A stretch of DNA of 64,000 nucleotides, from positions 3,987 to 67,986 of the IMG/VR virus record IMGVR_UViG_3300017963_000273. The stretch is one strand, 5' to 3'. The translations under genes and the position numbers were made by a program. The DNA is from a virus. The notes beneath the pieces are model-generated. The model saw nothing but the letters and a program-made list of their open reading frames with translations, was not told the origin of the DNA and did no database searches. Positions 4,699 through 44,509 of this stretch are shown here, piece by piece; the stretch's first letter is position 1, and each line of letters begins with the position of its first letter.

Positions 4699-4718
4699 AT
4701 CTTGAAAATTAATGCAAT

Positions 4719-4752
4719 AAAAAAGGTGACCGTCTTTATGATGATCACCTCT
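4719..4752 (-). terminator. Attenuator terminator of tRNA array 1
   Basis: GAGGTGATC..GGTCACCTT hairpin plus U6, 20 nt before the first tRNA. Confidence 0.85.
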
Positions 4753-4780
4753 AAAAAATTTATATCTTTAAAATCTATTT

Positions 4781-4876
4781 CTATAGAAGTGATCGATGCA
4801 TGGAATCAGTATCCACGATATCATGATCGTGTTCTACTGTTTCAATAATTGTAGTGGTTGTATTAACTACTAGCAT
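4781..4876 (-). CDS. Leader peptide 1, MLVVNTTTTIIETVEHDHDIVDTDSMHRSLL (31 aa)
   Basis: AGGAG RBS; 21 of residues 3-24 are V/T/I/E/H/D, the amino acids of the downstream tRNAs; 3' end complementary to the terminator arm. Confidence 0.88.
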   Translation of the reverse strand: MLVVNTTTTIIETVEHDHDIVDTDSMHRSLL

Positions 4877-4896
4877 CTTTCGCTCCTATTTGTATT

Positions 4897-4971
4897 TTCT
4901 TAAGTTTATTTATAACTTTTCAATTATTTTTTCGTTGTTATAATATAACCTAAAAACTATAAAAGTATAGT
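4897..4971 (-). promoter_or_regulatory. 75-bp tRNA-array promoter, copy 1 (early-like CTATAC-N16-TTATAT plus late TATAAATA)
   Basis: Identical to 44435-44509. Confidence 0.85.
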
Positions 4972-4992
4972 TGTTTGATTAAAATTTTTAAA

Positions 4993-5343
4993 TTAATTAT
5001 TTTCAGCTTTTGCCTTCATAATATTATAAAAATTTTCAAACTCATATAATAAACGTACTAAATCTGTTTGATGTTCTTCTATCGGTCGTAATGCTTCATC
5101 AAAAGTATCAGTACCATGATAGAAAAAATCACCATCTTGATCATATTCTATAATTCTTTTAATCTTACTTTCGTTTTCTTTAATAAAATCTAATAATTCA
5201 GTTACTGCTGTATCAAAATTAGAATTTAATCTTGTTAGTTCAGCAATATCTAAATCATCTGTTATTTTTTTAACTATTTGGTTACGTGAAGGTCTTTTAA
5301 AAGCTTCACGTATTGTTTTTAGTTGTTTTTCAAAATTACTCAT
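4993..5343 (-). CDS. EAFK-family putative internal head protein; start re-set to MSNFEK
   Basis: N-terminus MSNFEKQLKTIRE-AFK shared with six other ORFs. Confidence 0.65.
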   Translation of the reverse strand: MSNFEKQLKTIREAFKRPSRNQIVKKITDDLDIAELTRLNSNFDTAVTELLDFIKENESKIKRIIEYDQDGDFFYHGTDTFDEALRPIEEHQTDLVRLLYEFENFYNIMKAKAENN

Positions 5344-6073
5344 CTTTATTATCCTTTCGAGCAGTAGCTTCTTTATACCATTGTGCGTATGTTTTCGCGC
5401 GATCTTTAGCTGGACCATCATCCTTTTTTAAATCAGCACGAATAGTATCATTATTTCTAAATTCTTTCCAAAGTGTTTTAAGATCAGTATGATCTTTTCT
5501 AACTAATTTCCTAAAATTTGGCATTGCATTAACACCATATCTGTAACTTGCATCTAATAACCATTTTTGAACAGTTGGATGCATTTCTTCATATTCTGGA
5601 TAACGAGCTTCAAGTTCTTTAACTTTCTTAGCAACCATAATTCTAAGAAGAACTCCTGCTAATTTTTCATCAACAGTTGCTCTTCCAGTTTTTAATTGTT
5701 CCCAATTAGTACCATAAGCTTTTAAGATAGGATCCATCCAAGATGAATAATGTGTACCATGACCAATTGCAAAACCAGTACGATCATGTCTTGGAGATTT
5801 ATCTATACCTTCCCATTCTTTTAGCTTAAGAATATATTCTCCAAGCCAATTATAAGTTTGTTGTACAGCTTTCTTTTTAGGTTCTTCTTTAGGTGCTTCA
5901 ATTGTTTGAATTTTCTGATTAGGAGTTTTAGTTTGTATACAATCTTTATCTCCTTTTTTACAACTAGCTCCACTTATTGTTAATCCAGTTGCTAACGCTC
6001 CAGCAGCTAATTTTTTAGCAATTCCAGCTTCATCAATAAGATGTAATTTTTCATATAATTTTTGATATTTCAT
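5336..6073 (-). CDS. Lysozyme-like (GH24-type) muramidase with N-terminal targeting/hydrophobic segment
   Basis: LKEWEG..DRTG.AIGHG resembles the phage lysozyme E..D..T/IGxG motif; next to baseplate genes. Confidence 0.6.
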   Translation of the reverse strand: MKYQKLYEKLHLIDEAGIAKKLAAGALATGLTISGASCKKGDKDCIQTKTPNQKIQTIEAPKEEPKKKAVQQTYNWLGEYILKLKEWEGIDKSPRHDRTGFAIGHGTHYSSWMDPILKAYGTNWEQLKTGRATVDEKLAGVLLRIMVAKKVKELEARYPEYEEMHPTVQKWLLDASYRYGVNAMPNFRKLVRKDHTDLKTLWKEFRNNDTIRADLKKDDGPAKDRAKTYAQWYKEATARKDNKDE

Positions 6074-6075
6074 TA

Positions 6076-6510
6076 TTAGGCCGATGGTAGTATATAATTA
6101 TAAGTTATTGAGTTAATATTAAGTGTTGGAACATTAACTTCTATTTCTACGTAATATTCATTAGAATCTTCATCAGGAAAAACATTAACAGAAACAATTC
6201 TAACACGTGGTTCCCATGTGTTAATTGCATTTTTAATTGATGCACCAATTGAACGAGCAGTTTCATCTGTTATTGGTTCATACATATAATCATTGAGTGG
6301 ATTACCAAATTCAGGATTAAGTATTCGTTCACCTTTTCTCCAGTTAAAAATATTTCTTAAGCTATTTCTTATAGCATCAAGATCAAAGTTAGCTTGAAGA
6401 TCAAAGTTAGCTGAATCTTTAACAATTGGAATATCAATATCTTTAAAGCGCCAATTCTTTGATTTACTTTCTTCTTGTGCAAATGCTGCATTAAACGTTA
6501 TTGAGCCCAT
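6076..6510 (-). CDS. Baseplate wedge subunit, gp25-like
   Basis: AIRNSLRNIF..KGERILNPEFG..YEP..WEPRV. Confidence 0.93.
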   Translation of the reverse strand: MGSITFNAAFAQEESKSKNWRFKDIDIPIVKDSANFDLQANFDLDAIRNSLRNIFNWRKGERILNPEFGNPLNDYMYEPITDETARSIGASIKNAINTWEPRVRIVSVNVFPDEDSNEYYVEIEVNVPTLNINSITYNYILPSA

Positions 6511-6531
6511 ATTAACCTCTTTTCCTTATAT

Positions 6532-7593
6532 TTATAAAGAACTGATATCAGGTGGGAAACCTGGTAAAACAAATTGTAAAAATTCACAAAATGTTAATTG
6601 TCCTGTTTCAGAATTAAGTGGTGCTGGCCAGCCAGGCCATCCTGGTAAATCACTAAAAAATTCTGCCGCATAAGCTATCCAATCCAGTAATTCTTTAAAC
6701 GGTGCAAATATAGCTGCCATAAACGCAACAGCTAAACGCCTTGCTAAATCAGCAGTTCTAATTAATAAACCAACTGCTCTATCGGGAACTGTATCAATAT
6801 CTTTAATTTTAACATTAAGAATTGGAATTGTAATTTCACCAATCGCAGTATAAATAGCTTCTATATTATCTCCTAAAGTATCAAAAATTCCATCAATTGT
6901 ATTACTAATACTTGTCCAAATATCTTGTAATGTAGGAGGATCGTCAAGTCCTAAAGCATCCCAGATATCTTCAAACGTAGATATTAATGTACCCATTATA
7001 TCAAAAATCGGTTGTAAAAGAGTATTAGCAGTTTGAGTCATTAAACTAGTAAACCACTCAACTACCTTAACATCTTTCATAATTGGTCCAAATGGTGGTT
7101 TAAACATCTTATCTAATGGAGACGGTAAATCAAAATCTAAATCTATTAAATCGGATAATTCTTGTTTCATTTCTCCACGTTTAGTTTCATCAAATAAATC
7201 TCCAACTGTAAAATCATCTAATGGCCAAGGTAATGGGATAGCTAGAATATCAAATGGAATAAGTAAATTAATAATTTCAGCTAATTTCACTATAAAGAAA
7301 ATTTGCATTTCATTCATTATAGCTTTCATCTTTTGTTCGATTTTAATATCAAAAGAATCTAATGAACCAAACAGTGGATCATTTGCAGATAATGGCCAAA
7401 GTCCTCCAAAAATTTCATCAAAAGTATCGATAATTGCTTGTGCTTCTTCACCAAGCCCGTTCAATACATATAATGTTTTCTTATATGCCATATCTTTAAA
7501 TGATACAACAATATCACCAATCATTGGAAAAGGATTAGCTGGACATGGAGGATTTTCTAAAATAACACCACTTGGAGGAGGAAAATCTGACAT
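6532..7593 (-). CDS. Acidic, Pro-rich hypothetical virion protein
   Basis: Between gp5 and gp25 homologues; AGGAG RBS. Confidence 0.7.
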   Translation of the reverse strand: MSDFPPPSGVILENPPCPANPFPMIGDIVVSFKDMAYKKTLYVLNGLGEEAQAIIDTFDEIFGGLWPLSANDPLFGSLDSFDIKIEQKMKAIMNEMQIFFIVKLAEIINLLIPFDILAIPLPWPLDDFTVGDLFDETKRGEMKQELSDLIDLDFDLPSPLDKMFKPPFGPIMKDVKVVEWFTSLMTQTANTLLQPIFDIMGTLISTFEDIWDALGLDDPPTLQDIWTSISNTIDGIFDTLGDNIEAIYTAIGEITIPILNVKIKDIDTVPDRAVGLLIRTADLARRLAVAFMAAIFAPFKELLDWIAYAAEFFSDLPGWPGWPAPLNSETGQLTFCEFLQFVLPGFPPDISSL

Positions 7594-7604
7594 TATAAAT
7601 CTCC

Positions 7605-43879: not shown

Positions 43880-43888
43880 ATTTAAATT

Positions 43889-43962
43889 TGGAAACGGTAC
43901 CCGGACTCGAACCGGGAATAACAGGATCAAAGCCTGTTGTGTTACCATTACACTATACCGTC
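43889..43962 (-). tRNA. tRNA-Gln(TTG)
   Basis: ACAGG-CT-TTG-AT-CCTGT; U73; CCA. Confidence 0.88.
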
Positions 43963-43968
43963 ATATAT

Positions 43969-44056
43969 TGGCATGTCAGGTAGGATTCGAACCTACAGTG
44001 AAGAATTACCTTCGCCGGTTTTGGAGACCGGGGCCATACCATTTGACGACTGACAT
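43969..44056 (-). tRNA. tRNA-Trp(CCA) with non-canonical long V arm
   Basis: CCGGT-CT-CCA-AA-ACCGG; V arm GAAG-GTAATT-CTTC; G73; CCA. Confidence 0.87.
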
Positions 44057-44087
44057 GTTTTAATTTCTAATTTTCAAAGATCACTTT

Positions 44088-44170
44088 TGGTGGCTAGGGA
44101 CGGATTCGAACCGCCACAGCATATGCGGGACTTTTACAGAGTCTTGAACTCACCAATGTTCAGCCTAGCC
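44088..44170 (-). tRNA. tRNA-Tyr(GTA), variant (C8)
   Basis: AGACT-CT-GTA-AA-AGTCC, V arm, A73, CCA. Confidence 0.87.
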
Positions 44171-44173
44171 ATT

Positions 44174-44259
44174 TGGTGGTGCGGGTAGGAATCGAACCTA
44201 CGATGTTTCTAATGTAACTGTTTTACAGACAGCGTCCTTCGCCGCTTGGATACCACACC
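44174..44259 (-). tRNA. tRNA-Tyr(GTA), first tRNA of array 2
   Basis: GCTGT-CT-GTA-AA-ACAGT, A73, CCA. Confidence 0.9.
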
Positions 44260-44280
44260 ATATTTAAGAATTTGCCCAAT

Positions 44281-44306
44281 AAAAAAGGCGAGCTTTGTAG
44301 CTCGCC
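44281..44306 (-). terminator. Attenuator terminator of tRNA array 2
   Basis: GGCGAGCT-ACAA-AGCTCGCC-TTTTTT, 21 nt before the first tRNA. Confidence 0.9.
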
Positions 44307-44338
44307 AGTAACCGGGGGGAGATTATTTAATATCCATT

Positions 44339-44419
44339 TTAGTCACAGCGAGCTTGCATTAGCGAATAGCTCCAAGATTGGAGTTGACTAAGTAAATATT
44401 GCTGTGATAAAATGTTCAT
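44339..44419 (-). CDS. Leader peptide 2, MNILSQQYLLSQLQSWSYSLMQARCD (26 aa)
   Basis: AGGA RBS; residues 4-20 are exclusively L/S/Q/Y/W, the amino acids of the downstream tRNAs; 3' end pairs with the terminator arm. Confidence 0.9.
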   Translation of the reverse strand: MNILSQQYLLSQLQSWSYSLMQARCD

Positions 44420-44434
44420 ATTAGTTTCCTAAAA

Positions 44435-44509
44435 TTCTTAAGTTTATTTATAACTTTTCAATTATTTTTTCGTTGTTATAATATAACCTAAAAACTATAA
44501 AAGTATAGT
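44435..44509 (-). promoter_or_regulatory. 75-bp tRNA-array promoter, copy 2
   Basis: Identical to 4897-4971. Confidence 0.85.

Follow-up and report, generated by a model that had tools for sequence, protein, structure and literature searches.

Leader ORFs matched to their downstream tRNA arrays suggest attenuator control of tRNA supply in a T4-like phage

Results

tRNA arrays preceded by short leader ORFs and terminators

The 64-kb window (the whole stretch of DNA that was analysed) derives from a T4-like phage and contains two units on the minus strand, each composed of a 75-bp block, a ribosome binding site (RBS), a short ORF, a terminator hairpin and a tRNA array.

Unit 1
4897..4971, minus strand: 75-bp block, copy 1, promoter-like, with a TATAAATA box (T4-late-type) at 4914-4907
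4883..4887, minus strand: AGGAG, Shine-Dalgarno-like, of leader 1
4781..4876, minus strand: leader ORF 1, 31 codons, ATG at 4876, stop ending at 4781
4719..4751, minus strand: terminator hairpin 1 with U-tract, -12.9 kcal/mol, the weakest of three
1187..4698, minus strand: tRNA array 1 (Ile, His, Thr x3, Glu x2, Asp x2, Val x2), ORFs interspersed
4140..4523, minus strand: peptidyl-tRNA hydrolase Pth2 within array 1 (PF01981, E 1.5e-36)

Unit 2
44435..44509, minus strand: 75-bp block, copy 2, with a TATAAATA box at 44452
44339..44419, minus strand: leader ORF 2, 26 codons
44281..44306, minus strand: terminator hairpin 2 with U-tract, -15.2 kcal/mol
42034..44259, minus strand: tRNA array 2 (Tyr x2, Trp, Gln x2, Leu x5, Ser x4; 10 tRNAs at default ARAGORN, the four Ser only with lowered thresholds)
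42731..42738, minus strand: TATAAATA box within array 2, preceding its last three tRNAs

This order of elements had been described in the original prediction and its coordinates were recovered for both units, whereas the count of two has to be raised to three, the third unit sitting just outside the window. The stretch said to be identical at both heads is exactly 75 bp (4897-4971 = 44435-44509), and the first tRNAs start at 4698 and 44259, which agrees with the claimed spacing of about 20 nt past the terminator when measured from the U-tracts. A simple terminator scan missed terminator 1 and detected terminator 2.

In the third unit (G000:C1 2902-2668) the leader, of 28 codons, is followed by a terminator hairpin of -17.7 kcal/mol with a U-tract. 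Its array was completed in the near-identical assembly L030 (99.95% identity to G000 across 6,486 nt, for which reason L030 was left out as an independent case) and holds Gly, Ala, Asn, Phe, Lys, Pro, Met and Cys tRNAs, two atypical tRNA-like genes assigned by eye to Arg from their anticodons, and a tmRNA. One Pro-type tRNA carries a Leu anticodon in L030, a single-base change relative to G000.

All three units are intact and have an identical block of 72-75 bp in common. The TATAAATA box, which we take to be of the 'T4 late promoter' type, lies upstream of many genes in this genome and also within arrays 2 and 3. Together with a repeated upstream motif it suggests that the 75-bp block is a promoter; of the earlier claim of an identical promoter, the identity stands and the promoter role is what box and motif point to. 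The boxes inside the arrays may let distal tRNAs escape gating: from the one at 42738, the final three tRNA genes of array 2 could be transcribed whatever the state of the leader, bypassing the attenuator. The arrays also carry Pth2 (array 1) and tmRNA (array 3), cargo that we count in favour of an attenuator.

Each leader is matched to its own array

The three leaders partition the 20 amino acids 6/5/9, each set being that of the tRNAs in its own array. Twenty-two of 30 residues of leader 1 are Ile, His, Thr, Glu, Asp or Val, and the 11 tRNAs of array 1 are of those types only; codons 6-24 (19 consecutive) specify Thr, Ile, Glu, Val, His and Asp exclusively. Leader 2 (18/25 own-set residues) has an uninterrupted run of Leu, Ser, Gln, Tyr and Trp over codons 4-20 (17 consecutive), again the only types held by array 2. 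Both matches are as originally proposed. In leader 3, 23/27 residues are Phe, Asn, Arg, Gly, Met, Lys, Pro, Ala or Cys. Each amino acid of a set is present in the leader of that set in all three units.

Pooled over the three leaders, 63/82 residues match the own array, a value that none of 10^6 random partitions attained; the same holds for the two window leaders (40/55, 0 of 10^6). Although the peptides are unrelated in sequence, each agrees with its own array. Across the 68-kb contig an RBS-led short ORF precedes 3 of 10 terminator-like hairpins, and these are exactly the three units. The leaders of the window use 40 distinct codons against 33.7 predicted from genome usage (108 of 20,000), a diversity above expectation that fits sensing at the level of the tRNA.

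Terminator and antiterminator pairings are mutually exclusive in folding models

The final codons of leaders 1 and 2 constitute an antiterminator arm: as had been noted, they are complementary to the 5' arm of the terminator, with duplexes of -17.7 (unit 1) and -21.0 kcal/mol (unit 2). In each of the three units the leader 3' end pairs with the terminator 5' arm, and a modelled ribosome near the stop removes this duplex; the E. coli thrL control behaves likewise. Using a co-transcriptional model with an assumed ribosome footprint (controls thrL, ilvL, trpL and hisL of E. coli), mean sequestration of the arm is -7.7, -10.7 and -9.9 kcal/mol with the ribosome over the sensing codons vs -1.6, -3.2 and -1.0 kcal/mol at the stop. 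The shape of the profile is that of the thrL and ilvL controls; trpL and hisL are poorly reproduced by the model. Equilibrium folding of the full-length RNA puts the terminator close to 1.0 wherever the ribosome stands, with few exceptions, and does likewise in all four E. coli controls; 1:2-like helices (cf. the protector hairpin) are present in full-length folds. In leader 3 the modelled switch point falls at the Cys codons or ahead of them. Even when the ribosome is left out of the model, some antiterminator pairing occurs (-5.1 to -8.3 kcal/mol vs -0.6 for thrL and -5.3 for ilvL), so the off state would depend on efficient translation of the leader.

In a dinucleotide-shuffle test, leader/arm duplexes reach z <= -2 in 9/22 heads vs 10/102 other terminators (p 4e-6); unit 3 has z of only -0.9, and 13/22 heads are above -2. 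Own leader/arm duplexes are stronger than cross pairings (0 of 200,000), and the three of this phage rank 1 of 22 both ways. No covariance-model match to the named Rfam leader families (Thr, His, Trp, Leu and others) or to the T-box riboswitch was found in the window, L001, L030 and six other loci.

Related layouts in other phages and in bacterial loci

A similar layout with other partitions occurs in 11 of 24 further tRNA-rich phage records, including the cultured Ralstonia phage RsoM2USA; the 24 are a biased pick. Twelve of the 24 have no head, several positive genomes also carry headless arrays, and among the five cultured records no head was found in four (Xoo-sp13, Atu_ph07, XacN1 and RAS14). 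For 17 heads from 10 other phage records the summed composition z is 50.5 vs 2.8 +/- 6.3 in shuffled pairings (0 of 200,000), and the own array is top-ranked for the leader in 10/17. Composition enrichment is absent in 5/17 (L002, L023, L047, L052 and the Asp/Glu/Pro head of L133). In the folding model a switch is absent from L104, and L052 fails to switch. Between the members of three homologous leader pairs (G013/G014), all indels within the ORF are in-frame. The original prediction had called for such a scan of other phage tRNA arrays, and its expectation is borne out: leader composition tracks array content and antiterminator pairing tracks the own terminator.

Partitions differ among phages, and on inspection this led us to reject any single biochemical criterion behind them, such as biosynthetic family or codon base.

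Scans of viral contigs for the promoter block and the odd-tRNA pattern, and a sheath query, gave no close relatives. The terminase has one relative at 82% and one at 57%, on contigs of 11 kb or less, and its best cultured matches are under 38%; it is matched in only 3/10 records, at 26-34% identity. At the DNA level, 50,697 phage records yielded no relative of the RsoM2USA leader. Among 80 bacterial or archaeal Pth2 loci, 11 have at least three tRNAs and one (L234) has a candidate head, with 8/29 own-set residues (P 0.12, not significant) and no homologue among the other Pth2 loci.

Discussion

An attenuator that would read the supply of its own tRNAs

Each unit has an RBS-bearing short ORF next to the putative promoter and ahead of the first gene, control codons cognate to the products of the operon, an intrinsic terminator separating leader from first gene, and a computed, mutually exclusive antiterminator that a ribosome at the leader end would remove, the last being weak under dinucleotide shuffles in unit 3. 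Ribosome-dependent transcription attenuation of the classical type thus very likely acts as feedback control of tRNA supply in each array, and each array is best explained as an operon whose attenuator reads the supply of its own tRNAs. This logic, already put forward in the original prediction, gains support from the third unit, which takes the nine remaining amino acids, and from the covariation of leader and array in unrelated phages.

Because the leader is built from the amino acids of the array, the tRNA set is apparently made only when ribosomes slow for want of those tRNAs. A ribosome on the sensing codons is computed to leave the leader 3' end free to pair with the terminator 5' arm; at the last 6-9 codons it would cover the leader 3' segment and leave the terminator free. 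Fast translation of the leader would then stop transcription ahead of the first tRNA, whereas a ribosome slowed because the cognate tRNA is missing, cleaved or uncharged would permit read-through and transcription of the array. The new tRNAs would let leader translation recover, and the switch would shut once more.

The trigger is likely to be that functional tRNA is lost or runs short in the course of infection. Given an attenuator, a host tRNA-cleaving defence stands slightly below an even chance of being that trigger; generic tRNA decay or a host/phage codon mismatch is just as plausible, and amino-acid starvation is improbable.

In full, the starvation alternative has the same attenuator sensing uncharged tRNA in a starved host, as in thr and ilv, with the extra tRNA helping the phage to compete for scarce amino acids. 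Attenuation does not distinguish uncharged from missing tRNA, and the modelled profile resembles thrL and ilvL. More tRNA would not, however, supply amino acids, the partitions vary among phages and do not follow biosynthetic families, synonymous codons are diversified in the leaders, and the cargo is Pth2 and tmRNA; we consider this account quite unlikely. It is very unlikely that genuine elements act only weakly or are bypassed in this phage, the arrays being transcribed mostly from late and internal promoters with leaders that fine-tune or are vestigial. The three intact units with their 72-75 bp identical block, the frame kept in homologous leader pairs and the recurrence of the layout in distant phages argue against it, despite the TATAAATA boxes within arrays 2 and 3, the weak terminator 1, the partial antiterminator formed with no ribosome and the many headless phage arrays. 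A device of opposite sign or timing, in which read-through needs leader translation and arrays are on when their own tRNAs are plentiful, draws on the fact that the fold model rests on an assumed footprint; it is highly improbable, since the antiterminator arm is the leader end, covered by the terminating ribosome in all three units and most outside heads, and since sequestration declines toward the stop. That the ORFs are trans-acting small proteins or chance frames, and the hairpins processing or stability signals of tRNA precursors, is barely credible: short ORFs are common in AT-rich DNA and 5/17 outside heads lack enrichment, but the peptides match their own arrays while sharing no sequence, and the U-tract hairpins have leader-specific competing partners.

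Comparison with known systems

With the E. coli thr, ilvGMEDA, trp and his attenuators (thrL, ilvL, trpL, hisL) the phage units have in common an RBS with a short leader of control codons, an intrinsic terminator and a ribosome-covered antiterminator at the leader end; pheM-pheST is a further ribosome-mediated attenuator of this class. They differ in that the controlled genes are tRNAs rather than biosynthetic enzymes or synthetases, so that the product would directly repair the sensed defect, in that each leader reads 5-9 amino acids, with the code tiled by several units, and in a no-ribosome default more open than that of thrL. A T-box binds a single uncharged tRNA directly, with no leader translation, and in this the phage units differ. 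The likeness to T-box riboswitches, as far as the available text of the source describes them, lies in antitermination that reports tRNA status (PMC2965389). The trn operon of Anabaena PCC 7120 (tRNA L-array; 26 genes in one operon, TrcR-repressed) resembles the phage arrays as a mobile tRNA array that is normally silent and activated under translational stress, according to the available parts of its reports (PMC8421152, PMC10272220). There a protein repressor takes the place of the leader-based architecture. The main text of PMC8421152 contains none of the words attenuat-, leader and terminator, and codon-specific sensing does not appear in the available parts. Work on how phage tRNAs counter tRNA-cleaving defences (PMC10264068, PMC12409363, PMC12916289, PMC13462974) offers a plausible selective reason for tRNA resupply in infection, and in its available text treats tRNA content and resistance rather than a gating sensor. 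In line with the novelty originally suggested, literature searches covering few subscription papers turned up no account of phage tRNA arrays governed by leader-peptide attenuators.

Why phages carry tRNAs has been an open question for decades, as the accessible text of one report puts it (PMC10264068). Constitutive explanations, such as codon compensation, predict no sensor; a codon-matched gate ahead of each array would make the tRNAs a conditional supply. From the leader sequence one can predict the depletion that would open a given operon, and the question becomes testable amino acid by amino acid. If the proposal is right, this is attenuation in a virus, with tRNA genes governing their own synthesis via decoding speed. 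Many large phages probably carry such a modular translation monitor, a set of attenuators tiling the genetic code, each turning on only the tRNA subset whose decoding failed; these would form a widespread class of tRNA operons that regulate themselves and have been re-partitioned repeatedly, and bacterial chromosomes may carry it too (L234). A phage so equipped would detect tRNAs destroyed by host defence or missing in the host and resupply them under feedback, and the leaders would be ready-made reporters of the tRNAs removed by a defence nuclease or toxin. Leader ORFs of this kind fall below usual gene-calling cut-offs. That of RsoM2USA is unannotated in its record, and the available text of the corresponding paper limits ORF calling to >50 aa.

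Organization of the tRNA units

The window comes from a virus record of 67,986 bp that represents a T4-like myophage of low GC content, with PHROG family matches for terminase, tail sheath, tail tube and helicases; a close cultured relative was not found, the best terminase matches having < 38% identity. The original prediction described two minus-strand units of upstream block, leader ORF, hairpin and tRNA array, and their anatomy is confirmed, including the exact identity of the upstream block over 75 bp:

4897-4971 and 44435-44509: 75-bp block, identical copies
4876-4781, minus strand: leader 1, 31 codons
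4751-4722, minus strand: hairpin and U-tract, unit 1
44419-44339, minus strand: leader 2, 26 codons
44306-44287, minus strand: hairpin and U-tract, unit 2

Array 1 serves six amino acids with 11 tRNAs and array 2 five with 14, four Ser genes of the latter being low-scoring and called only with lowered ARAGORN thresholds. The only Rfam matches in the window are tRNAs. Within the block lies a TATAAATA box, which we take to be a T4 late promoter; the same box precedes many protein genes in the phage genome.

The count of two units holds for the window and not for the phage, as the contig (C1) continues 3,986 bp past the window and a third unit lies there:

C1 2902-2831: third block copy, 72/75 bp identical to the window block
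C1 2902-47 of the full record G000 (left of the window; locus L001), continued in L030 7850-2520: unit 3, Phe/Asn/Arg/Gly/Met/Lys/Pro/Ala/Cys, tmRNA included

Downstream of the third block come an RBS, an ORF of 28 codons, a hairpin (-17.7 kcal/mol) followed by a U-tract, and the third array, of which G000 contains the tRNAs for Gly, Ala, Asn, Phe, Lys and Pro up to the contig end. L030, a near-identical assembly (99.95% over 6,486 nt), further supplies two Met (CAT-anticodon) tRNAs, one of which may be of the lysidine Ile type, along with tmRNA and the tRNAs for Asn, Cys and Lys. It also carries two atypical genes (L030 3990-3801, minus strand) that have an acceptor stem and a T arm and lack a normal D arm; their 7-nt loops read ACG and TCT. 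ARAGORN made no Arg call for this pair; read by eye, the loops suggest Arg tRNA-like genes.

Several smaller features accompany the arrays. A Met(CAT) tRNA outside them (L030 910-984, minus strand) is preceded by an incomplete version of the promoter-like upstream motif; no leader was found ahead of it, and it is possibly an ungated initiator tRNA. One Pro-type tRNA has the same body in both assemblies and differs between them by a single anticodon base (Pro TGG at C1 47-124 of G000; TAG, a Leu anticodon, at L030 5011-5088). In array 2, a cloverleaf-like element (window 43672-43799, minus strand; z -2.05), whose anticodon loop carries a hairpin insert of ~30 nt, is possibly an interrupted tRNA; an Asn-tRNA-like element at L023 13068-13190 has, by eye, a similar insert. 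The ~197 nt at window 43301-43497 (minus strand), also inside array 2, have no Rfam match and unremarkable folding (z 0.36). Elsewhere, a ~12-codon N-terminal coding motif (repeat D5) is similar in five ORFs (window 24236, 28876, 29465, 30589 and 44954).

Leader composition

The predicted match between each leader and its own array is borne out: across the three units 63/82 leader residues fall in the unit's own amino-acid set, a value reached by 0/10^6 random 6/5/9 partitions. The third leader fits too, with 23/27 residues among the nine amino acids absent from arrays 1 and 2, and in all three units every amino acid of the set is present in the leader. Only three of the 10 terminator-like hairpins in the contig have a short ORF with an RBS in front, and these are the three units. 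Distinct codons in the leaders number 40 of 63 against 33.7 expected; this diversity favours sensing of tRNA species, and structure constraints could add to it.

Ribosome position and the terminator

We infer regulation of the arrays, and its trigger, as follows. Transcription would begin in the block and a ribosome would load onto the leader. With cognate tRNAs ample, the ribosome at the last codons would cover the antiterminator arm, the terminator would fold and transcription would end ~20 nt ahead of the first tRNA; with a cognate tRNA missing, the ribosome would lag, the antiterminator would persist and the array would be transcribed, the newly made tRNAs closing a feedback loop. Pth2 (peptidyl-tRNA hydrolase) and tmRNA are carried in arrays as cargo. 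Internal TATAAATA boxes (window 42738, C1 2126) may offer distal tRNAs a way around the gating late in infection.

Equilibrium folding of the full leader gave no discrimination, the Escherichia coli control leaders included. In a co-transcriptional model (transcripts ended before the terminator 3' arm, ribosome mask of 28 nt), the computed mean pairing energy of the 5' arm in units 1-3 is -7.7, -10.7 and -9.9 kcal/mol with the ribosome on sensing codons vs -1.6, -3.2 and -1.0 kcal/mol with it at the stop, which agrees with the proposal that the leader end is complementary to the terminator 5' arm and masked by a ribosome at the stop. The modelled weakening occurs at codons 27, 19 and 20, which coincide with the ends of the sensing runs or are close to them; in leader 3 this point is reached at or before the Cys codons. 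The thrL and ilvL leaders show a like profile; trpL and hisL are modelled poorly, and the method is therefore a guide only. With no ribosome the antiterminator is partly formed in the model (-5.1 to -8.3 vs -0.6 for thrL and -5.3 for ilvL), which suggests a fail-open design.

Similar units in other phages

Sampling covered the surroundings of Pth2 relatives (28 and 80 loci) as well as tRNA regions from 19 virus records and from 5 cultured phages. The window geometry set the thresholds of a detector that ignored composition; this detector yielded 25 unique terminator-before-tRNA heads among 154 loci; the five cultured phages were scanned apart. Removal of three heads without an ORF, three of this phage, the near-duplicate L048 and L104 (no identified tRNA), and repair of one ORF clipped by the locus edge, left 17 heads from 10 records, which are not fully independent because six come from one genome.

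The co-variation of leader and array that the original prediction proposed to seek in other phages is found in this set: the summed z of leaders with their own arrays is 50.5, vs 2.8 +/- 6.3 when shuffled (0/200,000 shuffles as high), and the own array ranks top for 10/17 leaders; enrichment is absent in 5/17 heads. Amino-acid partitions vary between phages. One record (G010) has six heads, among them a Gln-rich leader before a Gln-only array and a Ser/Arg leader before a Ser/Arg array; G018 has a Trp/Cys pair, and G013 and G014 a Phe/Asn/Ser/Cys/Thr set. Between G013 and G014 the homologous leaders show substitutions and, within the ORFs, indels of 3 and 9 nt; single-base indels are located only past the leader stop. 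Pairing of leader ends is stronger to their own terminator arm than to the arms of others (0/200,000 shuffles), and in a shuffle control z is <= -2 in 9/22 heads vs 10/102 other terminators; unit 3 is weak in this control.

In the cultured Ralstonia phage RsoM2USA, an unannotated 37-codon leader (MG752970.1, ~87,180-87,360) matches its own array at 33/36 residues, with a clear switch in the folding model. At least one head is present in 11/24 records, doubtful in one and absent in 12, a proportion that is not a frequency, several records having been chosen after a head was seen. The head-carrying phages are distant, since those of their terminases that allowed a comparison are 26-34% identical to that of the window.

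Three large phages (G004, G016, G017; loci L043, L146, L149) have in common an array set of Leu/Ser/Trp/Phe/Tyr/Thr(/Glu), a leader being detected in G016 only. The leaders of L047/L048 and L002 contain nearly all amino acids, show strong antiterminator pairing and are possible general sensors; in L047 the array-matching codons are bunched directly before the switch point.

Comparison with known systems

The likeness to thr/ilv attenuation lies in the working logic, and the features testable from sequence are present; unlike those systems, the phage units would control tRNA genes, and in a virus. We see in them a known attenuation mechanism in a new form, of interest for its wide occurrence and for predictions that can be put directly to the test. 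Rfam leader and T-box families gave no match in the window, L001, L030 and six other loci. A search of the openly accessible literature found no description of leader-peptide attenuators on phage tRNA arrays. The main text of the RsoM2USA paper attributes the tRNAs of this phage to codon usage and contains neither 'attenuat-' nor 'terminator'; the word phage occurs 0 times in the text of a genome-wide attenuator survey (PMC2965389). The nearest functional analogue in the portions of the literature covered is the Anabaena trn operon, which translational stress induces via a repressor, TrcR (PMC8421152, PMC10272220).

A candidate head also occurs on a bacterial scaffold:

L234 13170-12243, minus strand: candidate head on a Chitinophaga MAG scaffold, near a Pth2 gene

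Its composition match is not significant and a homologue is absent from the other collected loci. The leader of this head has 30 codons and uses 18 amino acids, its terminator is at -20 kcal/mol, and the model shows a switch. The head lies 213 nt upstream of Ile(TAT)/His/Tyr/Phe tRNAs and is a possible bacterial version of the tRNA-array attenuator.
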